A stretch of DNA of 52,177 nt, taken from IMG/VR virus record IMGVR_UViG_2563366958_000018. The stretch is one strand, 5' to 3'. How positions within the stretch are numbered: position 1 is the first letter of the stretch; every line of letters starts with the position of its first letter. The translations under genes and the position numbers were made by a program. Shown here piece after piece: positions 1 through 46,669 of the stretch. Under the pieces are notes generated by a model. The model ran no database searches. It worked only from the letters and a program-made list of their open reading frames with translations, and was not told where the DNA came from. Source of the stretch: a virus. Lineage: Duplodnaviria > Heunggongvirae > Uroviricota > Caudoviricetes.

Positions 1-3000
1 ATGCCTGTCGACTTTCTAACCTCTGACCAAAAACAGAATTACGGTTGTTATGCTGCAGAACCTAATGACGTGCAACTGGCGCGCTATTTTCATCTTGATG
101 AACGGGATCTGGCCTTCATTAACCAACGACGGGGCAAACATAATAGGCTGGGCATTGCGCTTCAGCTCACCACAGCCCGTTTTCTGGGAACATTTCTGAC
201 GGATTTAACTCAGGTTCTGCCTGGTGTTCAACATTTTGTCGCGGTACAGCTTAATATCCACCGTCCAGAAGTTCTCTCCCGCTATGCTGAACGGGACACT
301 ACCCTTAGAGAACATACTGCATTAATTAAGGAATATTACGGCTATCATGAATTTGGTGATTTTCCATGGTCTTTCCGCCTGAAGCGTCTGCTATATACCC
401 GGGCGTGGCTCAGTAATGAGCGACCGGGTCTGATGTTTGATTTTGCCACTGCATGGTTGCTTCAAAATAAGGTATTACTGCCCGGAGCAACCACACTAGT
501 ACGTCTCATCAGTGAAATTCGTGAAAGGGCAAATCAGCGGCTGTGGAAAAAGCTGGCCGCACTGCCGAACAAATGGCAGGCAGCTCAAGTGATGGAGCTT
601 CTGGTCATTCCGGAAGGTCAGCGTGTATCAGCACTGGAACAGTTGAAAAAAGGCCCTGTTACAGTCAGTGGACCTGCGTTTAATGAGGCGCTGGAACGAT
701 ATATCCGATTACGAAGTCTTGAGTTTTCCCGACTGAACTTTTCCGGTCTGCCTGCCATTCAACTGCGTAATCTGGCTCGTTATGCTGGCATGGCGTCGGT
801 AAAATATATCGCTCGAATGCCACAGCAGAGAAAGCTTGCTGCACTTACTGCATTCGTTAAAGCACAGGAAATAACGGCATTAGACGATGCCGTTGATGTG
901 CTTGATATGCTAATTCTGGACATTATCCGCGAAGCAAAGAAAACCGGGCAAAAAAAAAGACTCAGGACACTGAAAGATCTTGATCAGGCCGCATTGTTAC
1001 TGGCGCGGGCATGTGCATTGTTGCTGGATGATAATACAGATGTCCCAGATCTCAGGCAGGTTATCTTCAAGTGCGTACCCAAAAACAGACTGGCAGAATC
1101 TGTAAGCAAGGTTAATGAACTTGCTCGTCCACAGAACAATAATTTCCATGACGAAATGGTTGAGCAGTACGGTCGGGTTAAACGTTTTCTTCCGGCGGTG
1201 TTGCGGGACCTGCATTTCCGTGCGGCACCGGCAGGTGAACATGTACTGGCTGCGATTCATTATCTGGCAGAACTGAATGGTTCGAAAAAGCGCATCCTTG
1301 ATGATGCGCCTGAACATATTATCACCGGTCCCTGGAAACGCCTCGTATACGATGCGGAGGGACGGATACAGCGTGCAGGTTATTCACTATGTTTGCTGGA
1401 ACGCCTTCAGGATGCACTGCGCCGCCGGGACATCTGGCTTGAAAACAGTGATCGCTGGGGAGATCCTCGCGAGAAGTTGTTGCAAGGTGAAGAGTGGCAG
1501 ACTCAGCGTATTCCTGTCTGTCGGGCACTGGGACATCCTGTCGATGGACGTAAAGGTGTGCAACAACTGGCTATTCAGCTGGATGAGACCTGGAAAGCCG
1601 TGGCATCACGATTTGAAAAGAATGCGGAAGTTCATATCTGTAATGAAGGTAAATATCCATCCCTGACTATCAGTTGTCTGGAGAAACAGGAAGAGCCACC
1701 ATCATTGCTTCGTCTAAATAATCGGATCAAACAGCTACTCCCACCGGTAGATTTAACGGAACTGTTACTTGAGATAGATGCCCAGACAGGATTTACACAT
1801 GAGTTTGCGCATGTCAGTGAATCTGGTGCTCGAGCGCAAGATTTGCACATCAGTTTATGTGCGGTATTGATGGCTGAAGCCTGTAATATCGGACTGGAGC
1901 CGCTGATAAAGCACAATATACCAGCACTGACCCGCCATCGGCTCAGTTGGGTGAAACAGAATTACCTTCGTGCAGAAACGCTGGTCAGCGCCAATGCCCG
2001 CCTGGTTGATTTTCAGTCCACACTGGAGCTTGCTGGTCGTTGGGGAGGTGGAGAAGTGGCATCAGCTGACGGCATGCGCTTTGTCACACCAGTGAAGACC
2101 ATCAACTCAGGATCTAACAGAAAATATTTTGGTTCTGGACGAGGCATCACCTGGTATAACTTCGTATCTGATCAGTACTCTGGGTTCCATGGCATTGTGG
2201 TACCCGGTACATTACGGGATTCGATTTTTGTACTGGAAGGACTTCTTGAGCAGCAGACAGGGCTGAATCCAGTTGAAATCATGACAGACACTGCGGGTAG
2301 CAGCGATATTATTTTCGGTCTGTTCTGGCTACTGGGGTATCAGTTTTCCCCCCGGCTTGCCGATGCAGGTGAGGCGGTGTTCTGGCGGGTGAATAAATCG
2401 GCAAACTACGGAGTACTGGATAAGTTGGCCCGAGGATATGCAGATCTGTCAAAAGCGGAGAGTCAGTGGGATGAGATGATGCGAACCGCTGGTTCGCTGA
2501 AGTTGGGTACAATTCATGCGTCAGAACTCATTCGCTCTTTACTGAAAAGCTCGCGCCCATCAGGACTGGCACAGGCAATTATGGAAGTAGGGCGTGTAAA
2601 CAAAACGCTATATCTCCTCAATTATATTGATGATGAAGATTATCGTCGGCGGATCCTGACGCAGCTTAATCGAGGAGAAGGCCGCCACGCTGTGGCTCGT
2701 GCGATTTGTTACGGACAACGCGGAGAGATCAGAAAGCGTTATCGTGAAGGGCAGGAAGATCAACTGGGGGCGCTGGGCCTGGTTACTAATGCAGTGGTTC
2801 TGTGGAACACGCTCTATATGGAGGAAGCGTTGAGCTGGATGCGCCGTAATGGCGAAGAAATTATAGATGAAGATATCGCTCGGCTATCTCCCCTGATGCA
2901 CGGGCATATCAATATGTTGGGCCATTATACATTCACGTTGCCAGAGGATATTTTAAAAGGGGAACTGAGAGCTCTAAATTTAAATATAAACAACGAATTA

Positions 3001-3009
3001 TCTCCTTAA
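1..3009 (+). CDS. tnpA: Tn3-family transposase TnpA (Tn1000/gamma-delta-like), 1002 aa
   Basis: Full-length ORF starting MPVDFLT; conserved Tn3-family TnpA blocks (RPGLMFD, GGGEVASADGMRFV, LSPLMHGHINMLGHY); stop codon lies inside the terminal IR as in Tn3-family elements. Confidence 0.9.
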   Translation: MPVDFLTSDQKQNYGCYAAEPNDVQLARYFHLDERDLAFINQRRGKHNRLGIALQLTTARFLGTFLTDLTQVLPGVQHFVAVQLNIHRPEVLSRYAERDTTLREHTALIKEYYGYHEFGDFPWSFRLKRLLYTRAWLSNERPGLMFDFATAWLLQNKVLLPGATTLVRLISEIRERANQRLWKKLAALPNKWQAAQVMELLVIPEGQRVSALEQLKKGPVTVSGPAFNEALERYIRLRSLEFSRLNFSGLPAIQLRNLARYAGMASVKYIARMPQQRKLAALTAFVKAQEITALDDAVDVLDMLILDIIREAKKTGQKKRLRTLKDLDQAALLLARACALLLDDNTDVPDLRQVIFKCVPKNRLAESVSKVNELARPQNNNFHDEMVEQYGRVKRFLPAVLRDLHFRAAPAGEHVLAAIHYLAELNGSKKRILDDAPEHIITGPWKRLVYDAEGRIQRAGYSLCLLERLQDALRRRDIWLENSDRWGDPREKLLQGEEWQTQRIPVCRALGHPVDGRKGVQQLAIQLDETWKAVASRFEKNAEVHICNEGKYPSLTISCLEKQEEPPSLLRLNNRIKQLLPPVDLTELLLEIDAQTGFTHEFAHVSESGARAQDLHISLCAVLMAEACNIGLEPLIKHNIPALTRHRLSWVKQNYLRAETLVSANARLVDFQSTLELAGRWGGGEVASADGMRFVTPVKTINSGSNRKYFGSGRGITWYNFVSDQYSGFHGIVVPGTLRDSIFVLEGLLEQQTGLNPVEIMTDTAGSSDIIFGLFWLLGYQFSPRLADAGEAVFWRVNKSANYGVLDKLARGYADLSKAESQWDEMMRTAGSLKLGTIHASELIRSLLKSSRPSGLAQAIMEVGRVNKTLYLLNYIDDEDYRRRILTQLNRGEGRHAVARAICYGQRGEIRKRYREGQEDQLGALGLVTNAVVLWNTLYMEEALSWMRRNGEEIIDEDIARLSPLMHGHINMLGHYTFTLPEDILKGELRALNLNINNELSP

Positions 3010-4216: not shown

Positions 4217-4465
4217 TTACTTCTGGTTGTATTGAGCCTTGAGTAACTCAAAAGATTTTGTCAGCACTTCTTTCAATGACATATCCATTGAGCTGGCGAA
4301 CGTTTTGTACTCGCGTTTAAATTCAGGGTCGACGTTAAACGCCATTTGTGCCCCACCTGATTTGGTTCTGGTTGGCGTTTCAGTCGGGTCGAAAACCTGC
4401 GGTTGTTCGATCGATGGCGGTACGCCTTTGCTGTTCTTCTTTGGTGGTTTTGATGGTCCGGCCAT
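4217..4465 (-). CDS. ParG-like ribbon-helix-helix centromere-binding partition protein
   Basis: 82 aa, disordered basic N-terminus and C-terminal RHH-like segment (MAFNVDPEFKREYKTFASSMDMSLKEVLTKSFELLKAQ); directly downstream of ParA-like ATPase; strong RBS. Confidence 0.55.
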   Translation of the reverse strand: MAGPSKPPKKNSKGVPPSIEQPQVFDPTETPTRTKSGGAQMAFNVDPEFKREYKTFASSMDMSLKEVLTKSFELLKAQYNQK

Positions 4466-4508: not shown

Positions 4509-5177
4509 TTACGCGGCAGTAGTCAGAGCCTCAAGCTGGTTGATAATCCCCTGAATAACGTCGTCTGCCTTTTTGCGTGGCGCAACGTATGAGCATTCAA
4601 TGAGGCTTAAGCCCTTATCCTGAGCTTTGCTCAGAGCTGGCTTGTGGGGAATGTACTTATCGACAACAAAGTATGGCGTATTAGCTAGGTACTCTTGGGC
4701 TTCAATGTAGTCGGCTTCGTTTTCAGCCGCGCCTGAGAACACCATGCAAATTTTCTTGATTGGCACACCCTTTTTAACGATGCCGTGAGCTGTGTTAACG
4801 GTGGTTTCTAGGTCATCGGTAGAGAATCTGGTTGGCAAAATAACCATATCCAGAAATTCAGAGAGCTTCGGTACTGATTCAGATGCGTAGGCACCGCCAT
4901 CGACGATAACCAGGTCGTATACTTCTGATTCGATGATTTTCTGGACTTGTGATGGCGTGCCGCACGGCTGCGCCGCGATTGCAGGTTCGATATTGTTGGC
5001 CATTCTGCGTTGTACCCAACGCGTTACCGTTCCGTTAAGCACATCCATATCGATCAGGCATACATTCCAGCCGGCCTTTGCATAAGCAACTGCTAAAGCA
5101 CGGGCAATTGTTGATTTGGTTACGCCGCCTTTTCCGTTGAAAATACCTACAGAGATAGTCATTTGTCGAGACTCCAT
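4509..5177 (-). CDS. ParA/ParF-type partition ATPase (small ParA)
   Basis: Deviant Walker A (GIFNGKGGVTKST) near N-terminus, 222 aa; alternative start at 5162 (MTISV...) has the better RBS. Confidence 0.85.
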   Translation of the reverse strand: MESRQMTISVGIFNGKGGVTKSTIARALAVAYAKAGWNVCLIDMDVLNGTVTRWVQRRMANNIEPAIAAQPCGTPSQVQKIIESEVYDLVIVDGGAYASESVPKLSEFLDMVILPTRFSTDDLETTVNTAHGIVKKGVPIKKICMVFSGAAENEADYIEAQEYLANTPYFVVDKYIPHKPALSKAQDKGLSLIECSYVAPRKKADDVIQGIINQLEALTTAA

Positions 5178-5779: not shown

Positions 5780-6436
5780 TCATAACCAGTTGACAACACT
5801 AACTACGCGGCCAAGAACTTTATAACGCTTAAATTCCTCGTTATTCAGATGCTTAGTGTTCATTTCAGCATCCCTTTCGGTTGACAGCATAACAGCATTG
5901 TCACCCGGTATGACTCTACAGTGCCTCAAAACAACCAGGCCATTTCTGTCTTCAAGGGCATAGATCCCCTCATGAATCTCTGTATCGTCTGTATTAATCA
6001 GGACTTGGGAGCCTGGGGATATTGTTGGTGACATTAACTCATCGTTGCTCTGGAGAACTGACAGAGACGATGGGTTGATGTTCTTGCTTCGTAGAATCTC
6101 CTGTTCTATCGCCAGCACTGGCTTTTCTCCGGCGTGCGATGCTATGTCATTTTTTATAGCTACAAGCCCAGGAATAACAGGAGCGTTAGTATTCTGGGGT
6201 GGGAACGGGTTATCTGTTAAGCACGCGATATAAGGCGCTGATGCTTTCAGGGCGTGCGCGATTTTCTTGATGGCAGGTATAGATGGTTGTCTTAATCCGG
6301 CCTCATAGTTCTGCAAGGTGCTTAAGCCTATTCCAGTGACTTGCTGGAGATCTCCGGCAGTCATGCCGGATTGTTTCCGTAGAGTCTGAATGCGCAGACC
6401 TATTTCTTTCTTGATGTTCTCGTCGTTGCTTTTCAT
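5780..6436 (-). CDS. cI: CI-like phage repressor (XRE-type HTH + S24/LexA-like autopeptidase domain)
   Basis: N-terminal HTH (LRKQSGMTAGDLQQVTGIGLSTLQNYEAG), Ala-Gly cleavage-site candidate, Ser (LMSPT) and Lys (KVLGRV) of the S24 dyad; divergent from the Cro-like gene. Confidence 0.85.
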   Translation of the reverse strand: MKSNDENIKKEIGLRIQTLRKQSGMTAGDLQQVTGIGLSTLQNYEAGLRQPSIPAIKKIAHALKASAPYIACLTDNPFPPQNTNAPVIPGLVAIKNDIASHAGEKPVLAIEQEILRSKNINPSSLSVLQSNDELMSPTISPGSQVLINTDDTEIHEGIYALEDRNGLVVLRHCRVIPGDNAVMLSTERDAEMNTKHLNNEEFKRYKVLGRVVSVVNWL

Positions 6437-6473
6437 GTCTCATCAATCGTGAATGGTGGGTTATTTATACATT

Positions 6474-6591
6474 ACCACATTTAGTGGTTTTCACATGGTA
6501 AGACGAGAGGTGGACCACAAATAGAAGGTTATTTTTTGTTTCGCCCATTGAAAAACTCACGATATGTGGTTTTAATACCACATATCGTGGT
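6474..6591. promoter_or_regulatory. OR-like operator region: three ACCAC-N5-GTGGT palindromes between cI and the Cro-like gene
   Basis: ACCACATTTAGTGGT (6474-6488), CTCACGATATGTGGT (6556-6570), ACCACATATCGTGGT (6577-6591). Confidence 0.6.
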
Positions 6592-15383: not shown

Positions 15384-15971
15384 ATGGAGGCAATTGCATT
15401 GTTTAATCTGATTTATGCAGATCCCCCCTGGGAATACAAAGATAAGTGTAAGGATGGGAATCGTGGAGCTGGTTTTAAGTATCCAACGATGAAAGCTGAG
15501 GATATTGCTCGTATTCCTGTCTGGCAGCTTGCTAATCCTGAATCGTGTTTGTTGGCCATGTGGTGGGTTCCGACTCAGCCAGAAGAAGCGTTGCTGGTGG
15601 TGAAAGCATGGGGATTCAGGCTTATGACCATGAAGGGCTTCACATGGAACAAATGTGGTAGCCGACAACCAGATAAGCTGGTGATGGGGATGGGGCATAT
15701 GACTCGTGCAAACAGTGAAGATTGCTTGTTTGCGGTAAAAGGCAAATTGCCGACCCGCCTTGATGCGGGGATCATTCAGTCGTTTACATCGCCTCGTCTG
15801 GAGCATTCTCGGAAGCCTGATGTGGTTCGTGACAAGCTGGTAAGGCTGTTAGGTGATGTTCCTCGTATTGAGCTGTTTGCTCGCGGTGATTTACCTGATG
15901 GTTGGCATGGCTGGGGCAACCAGTGCAATGGAGGTATCCAGTTGCATGATGCTCTCTGGCAAGTGGCATAG
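15384..15971 (+). CDS. MT-A70-family N6-adenine DNA methyltransferase (orphan)
   Basis: Catalytic DPPW motif (IYADPPWEY), 195 aa; no adjacent restriction endonuclease. Confidence 0.8.
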   Translation: MEAIALFNLIYADPPWEYKDKCKDGNRGAGFKYPTMKAEDIARIPVWQLANPESCLLAMWWVPTQPEEALLVVKAWGFRLMTMKGFTWNKCGSRQPDKLVMGMGHMTRANSEDCLFAVKGKLPTRLDAGIIQSFTSPRLEHSRKPDVVRDKLVRLLGDVPRIELFARGDLPDGWHGWGNQCNGGIQLHDALWQVA

Positions 15972-17954: not shown

Positions 17955-18578
17955 ATGACAAAACATCTTAATGTGGTTTCTTTACCACTTTCTGTGTTGA
18001 TTGGTTATGAAAAGAACGCTCGCACACACTCCGTGGAGCAGGTAGATCAGATTATTGCCAGCATACAGGAGTACGGATGGACTAATCCGATCCTGATAGA
18101 CGAGAACAACGTTGTAATTGCTGGTCATGGTCGAATTGCTGCGGCCACTCAGTTGGGGATGGATGATGTTCCCTGCATTGTTCTGGCTGGGCTAACGGAG
18201 AATCAGAAGAAGGCATATCGTCTGGCCGACAACCGTATTCCGCTGAATGCTGGTTGGGATGAAGAGTTGTTAAGCGCGGAGCTTGCAGATCTTGCGGCCG
18301 ATGATTTTGCTCTGGACTCAATTGGTTTTACTCAGCGCGAACTGGATAACTTATTGAGTGCGGCGGTCTACGATGACACAGAGGGTATGGATATCCCATT
18401 TGAGAAGGATGAGGCCAAATCAGGCGTAAAAGTTCAGTACCTGTCATTTGGAGGTCATAAAATCCCGGCAACGGATGAGGAAGCGGATCGTTTTGACTGC
18501 GCGGTGTCTCGTTATGTTGATGATAATGGCAGCTATATCGGATTTGTATCCGCATTGCTGGCTGGGGAGGTGTGCTGA
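17955..18578 (+). CDS. ParB/Srx-like nuclease-domain protein (207 aa)
   Basis: N-terminal ParB-type fold with GHGR arginine motif (VIAGHGRIAAA); paralogue of 21244-21834. Confidence 0.7.
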   Translation: MTKHLNVVSLPLSVLIGYEKNARTHSVEQVDQIIASIQEYGWTNPILIDENNVVIAGHGRIAAATQLGMDDVPCIVLAGLTENQKKAYRLADNRIPLNAGWDEELLSAELADLAADDFALDSIGFTQRELDNLLSAAVYDDTEGMDIPFEKDEAKSGVKVQYLSFGGHKIPATDEEADRFDCAVSRYVDDNGSYIGFVSALLAGEVC

Positions 18579-19951
18579 TGCTTCACCTCAATTACGACAT
18601 AACGCACCTACGCGGCGCGGAATATAACCCGCGTTTTATCGGTGAGGATGATCTTGCGAGGCTGGCGGAAAGCGTCAGGGAGCTGGGGCTTGTGAAGCCA
18701 TTGATAGTGCGCGGCGATTTGCTGGTGGCGGGACACCAAAGGACGAAGGCGCTACGTAAGTTGGGAATAACGCGTGCTGCGGTGTATGTGTTGCCCTGTG
18801 AAACGACGGTATACGACGAAGTACGGTTTAACCAACTGCATAACGGAACGGATTTTGATAGCGGAGATGAGCGTTGCAGGGTGTCCGGTCTGGAAGATAA
18901 GCATGGTTTTGTTCAGGTATCGGCAAGCCAGATCTCAGGCAATATGCGCGCGAAAATGGCATATGTTCGAAAGAACATAGCGGAACTGGTTATCAAGTAT
19001 GGTCCGTGGGGTGGTTGTGTTGCTACTCAGTCTGGTGAGGTTATTCACTGTGCTCAGTATGCATTAGCAGCGAAAATGACGCGCACACCGCTAACGGTGT
19101 TTGTGATCCCTGATGTTGAGAAGGAAAAATACCAAAGTTATCTGAATAAAACTTATGGTGTATTTGAGTATTCTCATCTGGAGAAAACAACATACATCCA
19201 GACGTATGCGCAGCTTATGCGGTTGCGTAATGGTGGCAGCCTGAAATCAAATCTGTATGAGTCGTTGATCCTCCCGATCGTTGCCAAGACGCCAAGAGGA
19301 ATTGATTTTGGTTCGGGGCAGGGAGACTACGCGCGAATGCTCAGGGCAAAGGGATATAACCTGCATGATCTTGAGCTTTTTCGCCGTAAGGGCGCTGGAA
19401 ACACTCTGGATAGGGCTGCAACAAACCGAATGATTGATACGCTGGTGGACGACTTAAAAACGCGAGGGCGTTACGACTACGTGATTTGCGATAGCGTTTT
19501 GAACTCGGTCGATAGTGTCGAGGCTGAATGGTCCGTTCTGACGGTTCTGAAAGGCCTGTGTAAAGCTGGTGGGTCAATATTCTTTTCTGGTCGTAGCCGT
19601 GGAGAGCTGGAAACAGTCCTGAAGCAAACACAAGCGGCGAGTTCCAAAAGCCGGCTTTATTTTATTGATCATAACGGTTTTACCGCGTTGTACCGGAAGG
19701 GGCACTGGTTTTACCAGAAGTTTCACTCTGATGATGAAGTGAAGCAGTTGTGTCGTGTACATGGTTTCAGGATTAAGCGGTCAATATTCAACTGTAATAG
19801 CTGGTATTTGCACGTCATTAACGATGATTCCCTTAGTTGGGCGAGTCTGGAGAAAGCTGTTCGTTTTGAGTTTGAGTTGCCGTTGCCTGGTGGTTCAACA
19901 ATCGGACGATCTGATGATGTGCTGGCGGCTTTCCGGCCGTTGATTAAGTAG
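18578..19951 (+). CDS. ParB/Srx-like N-terminal domain fused to a class I SAM-dependent methyltransferase domain
   Basis: N-terminal LVAGHQRTKA ParB motif; C-terminal motif I GIDFGSGQGDYA and acidic post-I motif (YVICDSVLN); no DPPY/NPPY motif seen. Confidence 0.6.
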   Translation: MLHLNYDITHLRGAEYNPRFIGEDDLARLAESVRELGLVKPLIVRGDLLVAGHQRTKALRKLGITRAAVYVLPCETTVYDEVRFNQLHNGTDFDSGDERCRVSGLEDKHGFVQVSASQISGNMRAKMAYVRKNIAELVIKYGPWGGCVATQSGEVIHCAQYALAAKMTRTPLTVFVIPDVEKEKYQSYLNKTYGVFEYSHLEKTTYIQTYAQLMRLRNGGSLKSNLYESLILPIVAKTPRGIDFGSGQGDYARMLRAKGYNLHDLELFRRKGAGNTLDRAATNRMIDTLVDDLKTRGRYDYVICDSVLNSVDSVEAEWSVLTVLKGLCKAGGSIFFSGRSRGELETVLKQTQAASSKSRLYFIDHNGFTALYRKGHWFYQKFHSDDEVKQLCRVHGFRIKRSIFNCNSWYLHVINDDSLSWASLEKAVRFEFELPLPGGSTIGRSDDVLAAFRPLIK

Positions 19952-19967: not shown

Positions 19968-20687
19968 GTGGCTGACAGAATTGAGATAAAGATGGATTTT
20001 TCTTCTCAGGATATTCAACGACAACTCCAGCGCCTTGAAGAACGCGAATTGCCGTTCGCAATGGCGCTTGCGGCAACCAGAACGGCAAAGGCTTCTCAGG
20101 CTGCGATTAAGAATGAAATTAATCGGGTATTTGACAGGCCCACGCCGTGGATTCAGAACTCTACTTACGTTTTGGCCGCAAAGAAGAGTGATCCTACAGC
20201 CATTGTGTATGCTCGTGAATGGGGAGGAACGCCAGCCCCTGTAACGTTGACTCCGCAAATCGAAGGTGGCCAACGACAGTACAAACGCTCAGAAGGGGCG
20301 CTAAGGGCTGGTGGATATTTGCCTAACGGCTGGCAGCTTGCTCCTGGTCCCGGCGCAAAGCTGGACAAATACGGGAATATTTCGCGGGGGCAATTACAGC
20401 AGGTCTTATCTGGCCTAAGAGTTCAGCGAGATGCGCATCAAAATCGCCGTCAGGGCAAGCCTACGGAGTTTTTTGTTGTTCGACCTGGTACAAGTAACCC
20501 GCTTCAACCAGGCGTCTGGCAGCGCGTTGGGCGGCGTCCTACGTTGATCCTTACGTTTATCCAGCAACCTAACTATTCGCAGCGTCTTGATTGGCATGGC
20601 GTGGCGCTGCGTGCTGGTGAGGATGCGTTTGCTGATGAAGTCACAAAGGCTATTGATGACATTCTTTCTAAGACCTTCTCTCGTTAA
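19968..20687 (+). CDS. Hypothetical protein (239 aa, GTG start)
   Basis: AGGAGG RBS upstream. Confidence 0.45.
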   Translation: MADRIEIKMDFSSQDIQRQLQRLEERELPFAMALAATRTAKASQAAIKNEINRVFDRPTPWIQNSTYVLAAKKSDPTAIVYAREWGGTPAPVTLTPQIEGGQRQYKRSEGALRAGGYLPNGWQLAPGPGAKLDKYGNISRGQLQQVLSGLRVQRDAHQNRRQGKPTEFFVVRPGTSNPLQPGVWQRVGRRPTLILTFIQQPNYSQRLDWHGVALRAGEDAFADEVTKAIDDILSKTFSR

Positions 20688-20879
20688 TCATCGTGTGGTT
20701 GATGGTGTTGTTATGCAGAGTGTATTCACTGTGTTCTGTAGCGTCGCTCGCTGGCTGTCTGTGGGGGAGCACGAGCATCGTTTCATCGTCCGGCAGAATT
20801 GGGTCCTTCTGGCCAAAAGCGTTGGATGCGGGTCATTCGAACCCCGATATTCGGCTAGCTAAACGTGAAAAAAGTTAGG

Positions 20880-21243
20880 TTAAAAGTTGCGGTAAAAGAA
20901 ATTTACTCATCTCATTGAAAAATATCGGGAAAACGTGATTTTTTCTGTATTTGTGCTGGTAAAAAGAAAGTGGAAAATTTTCTTTTAGATCATCAAGATA
21001 CGCGCAGATCTTTAACCAATGTGATGTTGTTCTGATAAAAATCGTTATAAATCATGCAAATACATCCAATCTTTTAACCAAAACACCATCGCAAGATCCT
21101 TTTTACTTATAAAAACTTAATAAAATCAGATAATTATGCTGGTTTGTGTGATTTTTCATGAGTAAAAAGATCGTCATTTTTCTCTTTTAGTATCAATAAG
21201 TTAAACAGTTTTCTTTAACCTGTTGTGTTATGGCGGTTAAAAA
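20880..21243. promoter_or_regulatory. AT-rich intergenic region upstream of the packaging genes; candidate cos/pac and late regulatory region
   Basis: Three TCTTTAACC-type repeats (about 21009, 21070, 21212) and four AGATC sites in about 200 bp. Confidence 0.3.
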
Positions 21244-21834
21244 ATGGCTCTAAAAATCGAATATTTACCAGTCGGTAAGTTGCTCAGATATGCCAAAAAT
21301 TCACGGACTCATTCAGATGAGCAAGTTGAACAGTTGGTGAACAGTATCCGTGAGTTCGGTTTCACTAATCCTGTGCTGATCGATGAAAAGAATGAACTGA
21401 TTGCGGGGCATGGGCGGCTTGCAGCAGCCGAAATTCTGGAAATGGATAAAGTTCCGGCGATTCGGTTGAGTAACCTTTCTGAAAAACAGAAGAAGGCTTA
21501 CAGGATTGCAGATAACAAGCTGGCCTTAAATGCTGGCTGGGATATGCAGCTTCTGGCCGAAGAAGTCAAAGAGTTAATGGATGATGATTTTGATATTGAT
21601 CTGCTTGGGTTTAATGATGCAGAGCTTGACGAAATGTTAAGCGATGAACAGCCGCAGGAAGAAGACGATAATTCTTCCCCTGTTGTTCAAATTAAGTACC
21701 TGGCTATTGATAAAGAACGTATTCCCGCGACGGATATGGAAATTGCATTGTTGCTGGATGTTTATCGTCAGTACCACGACGCGCATGAAACGCATGAGGG
21801 ATTTGTTCAGTATCTTGCTAATGGTTGCAAGTAA
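21244..21834 (+). CDS. ParB/Srx-like nuclease-domain protein immediately upstream of terminase small subunit
   Basis: LIAGHGRLAAA motif; clear paralogue of 17955-18578. Confidence 0.7.
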   Translation: MALKIEYLPVGKLLRYAKNSRTHSDEQVEQLVNSIREFGFTNPVLIDEKNELIAGHGRLAAAEILEMDKVPAIRLSNLSEKQKKAYRIADNKLALNAGWDMQLLAEEVKELMDDDFDIDLLGFNDAELDEMLSDEQPQEEDDNSSPVVQIKYLAIDKERIPATDMEIALLLDVYRQYHDAHETHEGFVQYLANGCK

Positions 21835-22385
21835 TGGCCATCGTCAGTAAGTCAGAGTTTGCCCGCCGGAAAGGTATTTCTCCGGCAATGGTTACGAAGC
21901 TCTGTTGTTCCGGTCGCATTCCAGTGCTGAAAAGCGGCAAGCTGGATTTTGATAAAGCCAGTGCGGCTTATGAAGCGAGCCGACAGGTTGGTCGTGAGGT
22001 ATCTGCTGAAAATGGAAAAAGAGGGCATGGGATATCTTCGGAACAACCAGAGTTACCCGCTGATGATGCCGGATTAGCTGGTGGTACTTCCGGTGTTGCG
22101 GTGCAATTCAACAAGGCTAAGACCGCAGAAAAAATTTATCAGGCAAAGCTGAAACGCCTTGAATTTGAAGAAAAGGAAGGCTCTCTCATCGCTAAAGATG
22201 CGGTCAGGGATGATGCATTTCTGGCAGCTAATGAATTGCGTAGCCGCTTATTTAGTATTGCTCCAAGAGCAGCTCCCCGTTGTGAAGGCAAAACAGCCAG
22301 GGAGATCGAGCGCATTATTGAAGACGAGATTAATTTTGCGCTTCAGGCGCTCCAGGAATCCCGATTTATTAAGCAGGAAGAATAA
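21834..22385 (+). CDS. Terminase small subunit (Nu1-like)
   Basis: N-terminal HTH (SKSEFARRKGISPAMVTKL) and position directly upstream of the large subunit; TAATG coupling. Confidence 0.6.
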   Translation: MAIVSKSEFARRKGISPAMVTKLCCSGRIPVLKSGKLDFDKASAAYEASRQVGREVSAENGKRGHGISSEQPELPADDAGLAGGTSGVAVQFNKAKTAEKIYQAKLKRLEFEEKEGSLIAKDAVRDDAFLAANELRSRLFSIAPRAAPRCEGKTAREIERIIEDEINFALQALQESRFIKQEE

Positions 22386-22390
22386 ACCTC

Positions 22391-24247
22391 ATGGGCGAAA
22401 CAGTATGGAGCACCGCTTTTTTCCGTGCGCTTCGCCCTAAATCACGGCTAACTGTTTCCGAATGGGCTGATAAGTATCGTCATGTAGCGCCGGGAACGTC
22501 TCCAGAGCCAGGGCCGTGGCGTACAAGCCGAGTGCCATATTTGCGTGAACCAATGGATGTTATTGGTGACGCTGATACAGAAACAGTAGTGATGCAATGT
22601 AGCTCGCAAATTGGTAAATCCGAATTACAGCTAAATGTTATGGGTTACTTTGCAGATCAGGAGCCATCTCCTCAGTTGATGATTTATCCAACGGTAGAGG
22701 CGGCTGAGGCTTTTTCAAAAGAGCGTATTGATCCGACGTTCAAATATTCCCCTGGTTTGAAACACAAGCTGCATGAAGGGAAAGAGGGGCGCGGTGCAGC
22801 CAAAAAGTCCAGCACGACTATACGTATGAAGCATTACGCTGGTGGATATATAGCACTTGTTGGTGCTAATTCCCCAGCAGGTCTTGCATCCAGGCCAATT
22901 CGAATACTGTTAGCTGATGAGATTGATCGTTACGGTGTGACGCAGGAGGGCGACCCACTAAAACTAGGTATTCAGCGTACTACCAACTTTCATAATCGTA
23001 AGAAAGTTTTTGTTTCTACTCCTGTTTTGGAGGAAACAAGCAAAATCCACAAGTGGTTTAAGCTCTCCGATCAGCGTTACTACCATGTTCCTTGCCCATG
23101 TTGTGGCACCATGCAGGTGATGAAATGGTCGCAAGTCAGATGGGATAAGAGCGATTCAGGTGAGGCGTTACCGGAAACGGCCAGATATGAGTGCTGTGAG
23201 TGCGGCGGGATTATGCGCGGATCTGGTAAACCAGACGTTGATTGGTTGGCGAAGGGGGTATGGATAGCTGAACATACTGGAGTTAAAGGTATTGTTGGTT
23301 TTCATATTAACAGTCTTTACTCCCCGTGGGTTGCATTGTCAGAGCTGGTTGAAGAATTTACGGAAGCAACCAGAAACCGCGATAAAAATGGATTAATGGA
23401 GTTTATTAACCTTAAGCTGGGTGAGCCATGGAAAGAGGATGCTAAAGACGATATCGATCCTGAATACTTGTTGCAACGCAGAATAAGGTTTGAAGAGTTT
23501 TTACCAGATGATGTTTTATTGTTAAGTGCTGGTGTTGACGTACAGGACACGTATTTAGTTTGTGAATTGGTCGGTTGGGGAAAAGGTAAGGAGTCATGGG
23601 GGATAGAATATAAAATATTCCCAGGTGATCCCGCACAAGATGTTGTCTGGAAACAACTTGATGAATACTTACTCCGTAGCTGGTCATTCCGTGACGGTCG
23701 AAAATTACAGATTTCTTCCGTTTGTATTGACTCTGGTGGGCATTTTACGACAGAGGTATATCGCTTTACTAAGCCGAGAGAATCAAGGCGAATATACTCT
23801 ATCAGGGGGCGTGGTGGGGTAGGTTTACCATTTATAGGAAAGCCAAGTAATAATAACCGTGTGGGTGCTATGTTGTTTAATTTGGGGGTTGATGATGGTA
23901 AAGGGACCATCATGGCAAGAATTAAACTACATGATCCTGGTCCTGGTTATATGCATTTCCCATTAGATTCTGACAGAGGATATGATACCGAATACTTTAA
24001 AGGATTATTATCAGAGAAAAAAATATTTGAATATAAAAATGGGCAGACAAAAGAAAAGTGGGTGAAAGTCTACGAGCGTAACGAGCCTCTTGATTGCCGT
24101 AACTATGCAACTGCCGCGATGGAAATTCTGAACCCTAATTTTAACTGGCTTGCCGAACAGGAAATGCGAGGTAATGTGTATGTGCAGAACTCGTCAGGTA
24201 TACGTAGAAGACGCCGTAGAGTTATAAGTAAAGGCGTAACCATATAG
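22391..24247 (+). CDS. Terminase large subunit (lambda gpA family)
   Basis: 618 aa; gpA-like layout with PCPCCG zinc motif and C-terminal nuclease domain. Confidence 0.9.
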   Translation: MGETVWSTAFFRALRPKSRLTVSEWADKYRHVAPGTSPEPGPWRTSRVPYLREPMDVIGDADTETVVMQCSSQIGKSELQLNVMGYFADQEPSPQLMIYPTVEAAEAFSKERIDPTFKYSPGLKHKLHEGKEGRGAAKKSSTTIRMKHYAGGYIALVGANSPAGLASRPIRILLADEIDRYGVTQEGDPLKLGIQRTTNFHNRKKVFVSTPVLEETSKIHKWFKLSDQRYYHVPCPCCGTMQVMKWSQVRWDKSDSGEALPETARYECCECGGIMRGSGKPDVDWLAKGVWIAEHTGVKGIVGFHINSLYSPWVALSELVEEFTEATRNRDKNGLMEFINLKLGEPWKEDAKDDIDPEYLLQRRIRFEEFLPDDVLLLSAGVDVQDTYLVCELVGWGKGKESWGIEYKIFPGDPAQDVVWKQLDEYLLRSWSFRDGRKLQISSVCIDSGGHFTTEVYRFTKPRESRRIYSIRGRGGVGLPFIGKPSNNNRVGAMLFNLGVDDGKGTIMARIKLHDPGPGYMHFPLDSDRGYDTEYFKGLLSEKKIFEYKNGQTKEKWVKVYERNEPLDCRNYATAAMEILNPNFNWLAEQEMRGNVYVQNSSGIRRRRRRVISKGVTI

Positions 24248-43599: not shown

Positions 43600-44472
<873 letters not shown>

Positions 44473-45688: not shown

Positions 45689-46669
45689 ATGGAAACAAAA
45701 AGCCCGCAGATAAATCTGCGGGCTTCTTGCGACATCCACGGAAAACCAACAACAACAATCCATGGGCGCCTCGACAACTCCCATTATACGTTGGTTTTCC
45801 GTGGACGCAAGAGCGAACATATGGATAGACCAATGCCGTCTCTACGTTCAGCTTACGTTTGTAATTTGTCGCCGGAGTTCCAGCCTCCAAAGCACCATAC
45901 GCACAAGCTGCCGCTGGTGTTATCTGATGCTTTACAGCGCATTAATGGGCGTGATCTTACGTGTGAGGTTGCGTTCTACGTTAATCAACCGTCAGAGCGG
46001 AAGCGCCGGATAAACGAGCATCGTCGTCGGGCGATTAATGCTGTGATCGCTGCGATTTTGCACCATGTAAACATCATTTCTAAGCGGGTTCTGGCTAGTG
46101 CTGAGGCGTTGGCTGATTTTTGCGGCCTGTCTACCGTATCCGAAGCTGGGAACAAGTCTATAACGCGCTGTACAAGGGCGTTGTCGCAACTGAAAGCGTT
46201 AGGTTTTATTGATTATGAACGTCGCTGGGATCGGGTGAATAAACAGTATTGGCCAGCGAAAATAGAGATTCGTGATCAACTGCTGGAAACCGTTGGTATT
46301 ACTGAACAAGCATGGAGACGTGCGGTTAGCCAGAAACTTAATTACTTCAATGCGAAGAATAGCGAACGGCTTAAAAAAGCGATAACGGAGGCTGATTATA
46401 AGCGTATTGTTATTCAGGAGCAGATGGAGAATGTATGGCGTCAGAGGAAGACGGCCAGAGAGATAAAGGCAAAACAGAAAGCAGCGGAGAGAGCTGCGCG
46501 TCTTGTTCGGGAAAAGGGAGAGGCCGAACTTCGTCATCAAATCACCAGAGAGGTTAGTCAGGAATTTGCTGATGGCATGTATCCTGGTGCTGACCTTGCA
46601 TATTTACGATCCCTCGTTGAGCAGCGTTATAACAGGTTAAGAAAGACCTGGAAATCACTCCAACATTAA
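45689..46669 (+). CDS. repA: Plasmid replication initiator RepA (IncFII RepA1 / I-complex RepZ family)
   Basis: Conserved RRRAINAVIAAILHH and CGLSTVSEAGNKSITRCTRALSQLKALGFIDY blocks align with IncFII RepA1 as recalled; likely true start at ATG 45821 (282 aa), with 45689-45820 being leader. Confidence 0.85.
   Translation: METKSPQINLRASCDIHGKPTTTIHGRLDNSHYTLVFRGRKSEHMDRPMPSLRSAYVCNLSPEFQPPKHHTHKLPLVLSDALQRINGRDLTCEVAFYVNQPSERKRRINEHRRRAINAVIAAILHHVNIISKRVLASAEALADFCGLSTVSEAGNKSITRCTRALSQLKALGFIDYERRWDRVNKQYWPAKIEIRDQLLETVGITEQAWRRAVSQKLNYFNAKNSERLKKAITEADYKRIVIQEQMENVWRQRKTAREIKAKQKAAERAARLVREKGEAELRHQITREVSQEFADGMYPGADLAYLRSLVEQRYNRLRKTWKSLQH
45699..45810 (+). promoter_or_regulatory. repA leader with two strong hairpins (candidate antisense-RNA target / translational control region)
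   Basis: AGCCCGCAG-ATAAAT-CTGCGGGCT (45701-45723) and CCACGGAAAACCAAC...GTTGGTTTTCCGTGG (15-bp stem, 45736-45804). Confidence 0.35.

Follow-up and report, generated by a model that had tools for sequence, protein, structure and literature searches.

Described relatives and the architecture of ParB-B

Phage loci in which a ParB module stands beside terminase genes were described by Iyer, Aravind and colleagues as ParB-Tls loci, Tls being the large subunit of terminase, and were predicted to modify phage DNA during packaging (PMC4738411), a prediction echoed in PMC8256090. A 2025 survey reported phage-enriched fusions of ParB to N6_N4 and Methyltransf_23 domains and gave no function for them (PMC12704722), and in a 2026 paper a small phage ParB without a helix-turn-helix (HTH), ParB176, was demonstrated experimentally to activate its cognate thymine dioxygenase on double-stranded DNA (dsDNA) (PMC13229309). 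The terminase association of the family is already in the literature. Here we analyse a member of this family, ParB-B, a 196-amino-acid (aa) protein of ParB/sulfiredoxin (Srx) fold that lacks an HTH and is encoded on the plus strand at positions 21244-21834 (ATG to TAA) of a 52,177-nt viral DNA (Caudoviricetes; IMG/VR record IMGVR_UViG_2563366958_000018), the whole of which is referred to below as the window. The most likely role of ParB-B is that of a nucleotide-gated adaptor acting at packaging, for modification enzymes, for the terminase or for both.

ParB-B was matched by Pfam ParB_N (PF02195) over residues 15-86 with 33.7 bits (gathering score 26.3; E 3.8e-8), and by PHROG 620, a class of phage proteins of ~200 aa labelled 'ParB-like partition protein', along its whole length (E 4.6e-75; residues 1-195 against positions 5-210 of the 217 in the profile), the C-terminal domain included. 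An earlier note on this DNA, made from the letters alone, had taken the gene for a ParB/Srx-like paralogue of 17955-18578; BLASTP confirmed this relationship over the full length of the two proteins (47% identity over 201 columns, E 8e-62), and the product of the latter gene is designated ParB-A. The same note had counted ParB-B as the third of its kind, which is correct for open reading frames (ORFs) containing ParB_N; only two of the three are close paralogues, as a ParB_N-Methyltransf_23 (MT23) fusion is distant from ParB-B (33% over 51 aa, E 4e-5). The identical ParB-B sequence was found on at least 1000 contigs; as a phage protein it is ordinary and widely annotated, and its class is already known.

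An AlphaFold2 model of ParB-B, built on 25 family members (predicted local distance difference test score 90.1), divides the protein as follows:

residues 1-95: nucleotide-binding domain (NBD), ParB/Srx
residues 101-132: short helical segment, a helical hairpin of three short helices
residues 133-150: disordered acidic linker
residues 151-192: C-terminal domain (CTD), a beta-hairpin and two helices, family-specific

The model displays the alpha+beta fold of ParB and sulfiredoxin. The invariant residues of the family are N19, R21, H23, G55-H56-x-R58 (x being G57 in ParB-B) and D90-N91; of these, R21, R58 and N91 did not vary across 25 and across 80 members. In an alignment with canonical ParB (Spo0J) and Noc, the pocket residues correspond to QPR of Box I, GERR of Box II and EN of Box III. 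Box II of ParB-B reads GHGR, the catalytic Glu being replaced by His and the first Arg by Gly, and the phosphate-binding Arg and Asn are retained. The pocket suggests that ParB-B binds a nucleoside triphosphate (NTP), and the protein would be expected to form dimers. No HTH or other DNA-binding domain was seen in the AlphaFold2 model, and no HTH family was matched in the Pfam and PHROG scans. The protein is acidic (isoelectric point, pI, 4.54 overall and 4.05 for residues 101-132), its only basic part being the NBD. A CTD motif, YLxFGxxKIPxTxxE...Y...G..GF, is common to 24 members, and no structural relative of this domain was detectable beyond other small phage ParBs.

The ParB_N-DNA methyltransferase fusions of ParB-Tls loci (PHROG 498) are 50-64% identical to ParB-B over their N-terminal ~145 aa (NBD and hairpin), carry the same invariant residues and occupy the same place beside TerS/TerL, often at a genome end; where their methylase domain would be, ParB-B has its family-specific CTD of 45 aa. 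As in these loci, the ParB module stands beside terminase genes, overlapping terS with a gpA-type terL next. No modification enzyme adjoins ParB-B itself: ParB-A and the MT23 fusion lie 1.3-3.3 kb off across the cos site, and an MT-A70 gene is found at 15384-15971. The ParB176-type activators of thymine dioxygenases (5mYOX; PMC13229309), compared by description only, consist of an NBD, a short helix-helix, an unstructured linker and a CTD with no DNA-binding domain, as in the ParB-B model. They are likewise encoded in phage DNA-modification/terminase neighbourhoods, and their pocket residues N14, R16 and R56 parallel N19, R21 and R58 of ParB-B. No TET/JBP-type dioxygenase was found among the scanned neighbours of ParB-B or among the genes that RefSeq annotates on pECO-b75, a plasmid nearly identical to this element; in contrast to ParB176, the partner of ParB-B would be a methyltransferase or the terminase.

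With the canonical clamps that depend on cytidine triphosphate (Spo0J/ParB, Noc, KorB, PadC), ParB-B has the phosphate-binding Arg and Asn in common and likely also a C-terminal dimerisation module. It differs from them in having no HTH/parS-binding domain and no ParA-interaction motif, in the GHGR for GERR and in not adjoining ParA, and against TIGR00180 (ParB/RepB/Spo0J) it scored 40.1 bits, below the cutoff of 58.45. Finally, there is the two-gene module of a small ParB and a ParB_N-MT23 fusion (PHROG 620 + 5475), the fusion type being one of those found to be phage-enriched (PMC12704722). ParB-B shares the full architecture of ParB-A, CTD included, but abuts terS and not the fusion.

The cos site, the terminase junction and the paralogues

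The late region around ParB-B is arranged as follows, all genes being on the plus strand:

15384-15971: MT-A70 family methyltransferase (Pfam E 3.4e-23; also in RefSeq pECO-b75), without a ParB domain of its own
17955-18578: ParB-A, 207 aa, same architecture as ParB-B (PHROG 620, E 1.2e-73)
18572-19951: fusion of ParB_N, a conserved middle domain and Methyltransf_23 (Pfam; PHROG 5475, E 9e-265), 459 aa, likely start ATG 18578
19968-20687: last gene before cos, PHROG 1924 'minor tail protein' (E 2.5e-97)
20831-20842: probable cohesive end (cosN overhang), GGTCATTCGAAC, from Yersinia phage record ends
20843-21243: AT-rich spacer from cos to the ParB-B gene, 401 nt, 30% GC, with five TTTAACC sites
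20878 (minus), 21011 (plus), 21073 (plus), 21214 (plus), 21235 (minus): the TTTAACC sites of the spacer
21244-21834: ParB-B
21834-22385: terS, terminase small subunit (PHROG 57, E 5.8e-41), with an N-terminal Cox-like HTH
22391-24247: terL, terminase large subunit of lambda gpA type (Pfam GpA_ATPase 7.1e-76, GpA_nuclease 1.1e-84)

The record of the Yersinia phage vB_YpM_39 opens with GGTCATTCGAAC followed by CCCGATG and closes with GGATGCG, and that of vB_YpM_44 opens with CCCGATG and closes with GGATGCG followed by GGTCATTCGAAC. Two assemblies broken on either side of one 12-mer give the pattern expected from a 12-nt cohesive end. The 12-mer occurs once in the window, and relatives down to 57% protein identity keep it unchanged at ~400 nt upstream of their B gene; 20831-20842 is thus a probable 12-nt cohesive end. 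With cos at this position, ParB-B would be the first gene of the virion DNA, and ParB-A, the MT23 fusion and the PHROG 1924 gene would lie at its opposite end. The site, which the earlier note had missed, is located between the two close paralogues.

Against the five TTTAACC sites of the spacer, 5000 dinucleotide shuffles gave 0.14 on average, and no shuffle reached five. Those at 21214 and 21235 form an inverted pair that ends 3 nt before the ParB-B ATG and overlaps its ribosome-binding region, and two relatives (L084 and L099) carry 7-9 GTTAAC in the corresponding region. The array looks like cosB-type sites for the HTH of TerS, and could also serve ParB-B as a candidate loading or operator site. 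In the plaque-forming vB_YpM_44 (L091, 1-330) ~90 nt of the spacer (window ~20968-21059) are missing, including the site at 21011, and this part of the array is therefore dispensable. A promoter scan of 20843-21243 detected no sigma-70 consensus promoter between cos and ParB-B; base composition across the locus was unremarkable.

In lambda the corresponding arrangement is cosN-cosB-Nu1-A, and in HK97 the HNH protein gp74 is a terminase-adjacent accessory. The present locus is similar to that of lambda in that a 12-nt cohesive end, a set of short repeats and the terminase genes come in this order, and to that of HK97 in having an extra small gene embedded in the terminase operon. It differs from both in that a ParB-fold gene is placed between the repeat array and terS, and ParB-B has no HNH or other recognisable nuclease motif.

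The stop codon of ParB-B (TAA, 21832-21834) shares its final A with the terS ATG (21834-21836). This TAATG had been read in the earlier note, and it is supported by the PHROG 57 match of TerS and by the RefSeq annotation of pECO-b75, in which the same 1-nt overlap and terS start are found. No Shine-Dalgarno-like sequence was seen upstream of the terS ATG, and coupling of the two genes by termination-reinitiation is therefore plausible. The note's 'translationally coupled' holds to this extent: the overlap and the missing Shine-Dalgarno sequence are there to be seen, and the coupling itself is plausible on sequence grounds. The ParB-A stop likewise overlaps the ATG of the fusion by 1 nt (TGATG, 18576-18580), there with GGAGG upstream, as compared with TAATG at 21832-21836 and no Shine-Dalgarno sequence. 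The two products at the terS junction have opposite charge, ParB-B being acidic (pI 4.5) and TerS basic (pI 8.7).

As all matches of a single-protein homologue search were at least 99% identical, the diversity of the family was examined with a profile built on ParB-A and ParB-B and searched against a representative library, in which 43,287 clusters at 50% identity matched. Neighbourhood counts rest on 80 viral-contig relatives. In 48 of these the N-terminal module was fused to an N6_N4 DNA methylase (N6_N4_Mtase) and in one to Mom, and all ten standalone relatives tested had a DNA-modifying enzyme directly after them (D12, N6_N4 or C5 methylase, Mom in four cases, a TET-associated glycosyltransferase (TAGT), or ParB_N-MT23). 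A large terminase was present within three genes in ~52 of the 80 (37 gpA-type, 12 Terminase_6N and 3 others), in line with the earlier note's statement that ParB-like genes recur next to terminases. The gene just before the first downstream ORF of at least 400 aa most often had a TerS PHROG match, and that ORF was mostly a large terminase. Another arrangement places the ParB gene between TerL and the portal gene. Seventeen of the 80 are situated no more than 250 nt from the end of a contig and point inward, and in many cultured phages the gene is ~150 nt from the record start, a figure that deposition conventions may inflate. The family occurs in phages of many unrelated hosts. To call these genes functionally unresolved, as the note did, is too simple for a class that is partly unsolved: the locus has a published prediction of DNA modification (PMC4738411, PMC8256090), a ParB activator has been demonstrated (PMC13229309), and the module is tied to DNA-modifying enzymes.

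ParB-A and the fusion are a typical case of the small-ParB/ParB_N-MT23 two-gene module. A full-length small ParB stands directly upstream in ~40 of 51 viral MT23-fusion loci, the same order is seen in P0127 and P0158, and a gpA-type TerL is often found 1-2.5 kb beyond the pair. The middle domain of the fusion (~150 aa) is strongly conserved, with the invariant stretches YDExRFNQxHNGTDxDxGDE and KYGxWGxCVA (window; L084, L087, L088, L099-L143).

In a neighbour-joining tree of the paralogues, calculated without support values, ParB-B falls together with L005-L009, P0122 and P0128, as a clade that is sister to A and has members down to 50% identity, and the members of the B clade always precede TerS and a gpA-type TerL. 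A relative at 57% identity (L084) keeps the order A - MT23 - PHROG 1924 - cos - B - TerS. L005 and L006 show lysis genes - PHROG 1924 - cos - B - TerS - TerL, two transposase ORFs being inserted between the PHROG 1924 gene and cos in L006; no A or MT23 was found within the 6 kb examined upstream of B in these two, and the L005-L008 contigs gave no match in an MT23 pattern scan. The case for B without MT23 is made up of these 12.6-kb loci and the negative pattern scan; no complete annotated relative without the MT23 cassette was found in PLSDB. The ratio of nonsynonymous to synonymous substitution (dN/dS) for B is ~0.05 (0.046 for L005), indicating strong purifying selection. As cos-B-TerS-TerL is kept and constrained in the absence of A/MT23, B is a maintained gene of the core packaging region and A-MT23 an accessory cassette. 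The clade of ParB-B appears to be derived, having lost adjacency to the MT23 fusion and abutting terS instead. The sub-functionalisation that the earlier note had read from the duplication is consistent with these data: the duplication is old, both copies are maintained (dN/dS for B ~0.05), and clades A and B differ in their conserved neighbours.

A proposed role of ParB-B at packaging

We favour, at a probability of roughly 0.45, a reading in which ParB-B is a nucleotide-binding, HTH-less ParB/Srx adaptor at packaging that helps DNA-modifying enzymes reach concatemeric dsDNA. ParB-B, with its gene the first to follow cos, would be made late and in constant proportion to TerS, and would act as a dimer held together by the CTD, the N-terminal domains engaging upon NTP binding. 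Its substrate would be the phage DNA concatemer, when and where this is packaged, and it would serve there as an accessory or activator subunit through which DNA-modifying enzymes gain productive access to the double-stranded DNA of the phage. The candidate enzymes here are the ParB_N-Methyltransf_23 fusion with ParB-A and possibly the MT-A70 protein, the other product of the late region that might modify DNA; in other phages it would be whichever enzyme is present. ParB-A would be the cognate partner of the methyltransferase, and ParB-B a sub-functionalised duplicate with TerS/TerL/cos as its constant partner, through which the DNA to be packaged is probably reached. Across the family the module goes with modification enzymes, and clade B goes with TerS/TerL/cos; an adaptor on the packaging substrate fits both. 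The reading draws on observed properties, namely the fold, the conserved pocket residues, the lack of an HTH, the gene order, the position of cos, the linkages to modification enzymes and terminases, and purifying selection; from these we infer the partners of ParB-B and any effect it may have on DNA modification.

Four points weigh against this reading. It is terS, and not a modification enzyme, that adjoins ParB-B. L005 and L006, in which the 6 kb upstream contain no A/MT23 and whose contigs gave no match in the MT23 scan, keep cos-B-TerS-TerL under strong purifying selection (dN/dS 0.046 in L005); as they retain a constrained B without that enzyme, B has a role independent of it. Mutations in the nucleotide pocket of ParB176 did not abolish activation (PMC13229309), and NTP gating is therefore not assured. 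Lastly, the Methyltransf_23 domain lacks the DPPY-type motif of DNA amino-methylases.

One alternative, somewhat unlikely in our view but the likeliest of those considered, is that ParB-B is purely a packaging accessory that acts with TerS/TerL at cos (in the initiation complex, in end handling or in the control of cos cleavage in the plasmid prophage) and has no part in DNA modification. Its position as the first gene after cos, the terS overlap without a Shine-Dalgarno sequence and the contrast between acidic B (pI 4.5) and basic TerS (pI 8.7) all agree with such a role. So do the constant placing of the B clade (the target, L005-L009, P0122 and P0128, to 50% identity) before TerS and a gpA-type TerL, and its retention at a dN/dS of ~0.05 where no A/MT23 is found in the 6 kb upstream. 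The iterated TTTAACC/GTTAAC array between cos and the gene is also in keeping with it, but is more simply explained as cosB sites for the TerS HTH, and B has no recognisable DNA-binding domain. Moreover, no precedent for a ParB-fold terminase cofactor was found in the literature, and the module has an evident link to modification enzymes in most of the relatives. Lambda's gpA/Nu1 terminase is not known to need a ParB-like factor.

A more elaborate scenario, which we consider doubtful, treats ParB-B as an HTH-less clamp: TerS bound to the TTTAACC array would load NTP-bound ParB-B dimers onto the concatemer, and the clamps would travel in the packaging direction, marking the DNA and carrying or activating the modifying enzyme of the phage. 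If true, this would explain the constant module with its varying enzymes, its place at genome ends beside terS and its survival without an adjacent enzyme.

It is about equally improbable that ParB-B is itself an enzyme, whether a nickase/DNase of the ParB type that attacks host or competitor DNA or an anti-defence effector that consumes or senses NTP. Some ParB/Srx proteins have been reported as DNases or NTPases, for instance Osa and the nicking Bce_0392 ParB-methylase (reviewed in PMC5512222), the pocket residues are conserved, and the same late cassette includes an anti-defence gene resembling Acb2/Tad1 in L084. Against this, ParB-B has His where canonical ParBs have the Box II Glu, the gene is part of a late packaging operon and not among early or injected functions, and the family is linked to modification enzymes and not to toxins or defence islands. 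The 'nuclease domain' of the earlier note is a historical label that found no support as to nuclease activity in this analysis, and ParB-B is probably not a nuclease.

Least likely is a role in plasmid maintenance or regulation, as centromere-binding partner of ParA or as a KorB/IbrB-like late-operon regulator on the inverted TTTAACC pair: the element, a plasmid prophage of low copy number, encodes ParA, and the pair overlaps the ribosome-binding region of the gene, but ParA is 16 kb away with its own ribbon-helix-helix-like downstream ORF of 82 aa, ParB-B is acidic, lacks an HTH and falls below the TIGR00180 cutoff (40.1 vs 58.45), and the family extends to phages whose hosts are many and unrelated, and to a lambdoid-type phage locus around which no plasmid genes were seen. 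ParB-B is not a partition protein; its candidacy as a partition ParB was rejected on the missed TIGR00180 cutoff, the lack of an HTH and its location in a late packaging operon instead of a ParA operon.

To specialists the finding will be unsurprising, and the value of the locus is that of a convenient system for a mechanistic question. Tens of thousands of phage proteins carry a ParB module beside terminase genes, with biochemistry for one relative only. What is added here is the mapped cos, the close paralogues that flank it, the conserved small-ParB + ParB_N-MT23 module and the terS-linked, enzyme-less clade. The element is well suited to work in E. coli: it is a plasmid prophage from which plaque-forming virions also arise, its cos can be mapped, its three ParB-fold genes are naturally split into enzyme-linked, enzyme-fused and terminase-linked copies, and there are natural relatives in which the methyltransferase cassette is missing from this position. 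It could therefore decide if modules of this kind join the modification of DNA to its packaging, a question that bears on anti-restriction and host range.

The phage-plasmid and other relatives

The region is 99-100% identical to circular plasmids of ~47-50 kb present in 72 of 5426 complete E. coli genomes; for the A+MT23 region the corresponding number is 71. One example, pECO-b75, encodes RepA, ParA, a toxin-antitoxin, lysis and P2-like tail genes. The region is also near-identical to the plaque-forming Yersinia phages vB_YpM_39/41/44, and the element is therefore a phage-plasmid. Its assignment to the pSLy3 phage-plasmid group was considered and rejected, that group being SSU5-related. Outside the late region the following features were identified:

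1-3009, plus: Tn3-family transposase
4217-4465, minus: 82-aa ORF downstream of ParA, with a C-terminus that by eye resembles a ribbon-helix-helix (MAFNVDPEFKREYKTFASSMDMSLKEVLTKSF)
4509-5177, minus: ParA
43600-44460, minus: TEM beta-lactamase (blaTEM), 633 bits to TEM entries of the PDB
45689-46669, plus: IncFII-type RepA

The presence of blaTEM makes the element an antibiotic-resistance-bearing phage-plasmid, and its packaging and host-range determinants are relevant to the spread of phage-borne resistance. The 82-aa ORF is probably the real centromere-binding partner of ParA. The PHROG 1924 gene adjoins cos even in the relatives without A/MT23 (L005/L006) and is a core gene; its product had no Pfam or NCBIfam match, and a homologue on a Salmonella plasmid (L144 38179-38895) is named 'glycosyltransferase family 1 protein' in RefSeq.

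Several observations were made in other relatives. Just upstream of its ParB-A, L084 carries a gene (490-774) with an Acb2/Tad1 hairpin domain, of the anti-CBASS/Thoeris sponge family; no Acb2/Tad1-like homologue was found in the window. In one group of gpA-terminase phages, the slot between TerL and gpW/portal is occupied either by a 412-aa ParB-methylase fusion or by a 195-aa ParB-only gene (L029, L031 and L043, ~5983-6570, as compared with L036, L058 and L062); here the methylase domain has been lost in nature while the ParB module has stayed. Finally, a lambdoid-type phage contig with a Q-antiterminator-like gene (L014 1655-8987) encodes homologues of the heat-labile enterotoxin A chain, and directly before its TerS-TerL carries a 262-aa ParB followed by a TET-associated-glycosyltransferase-like gene.

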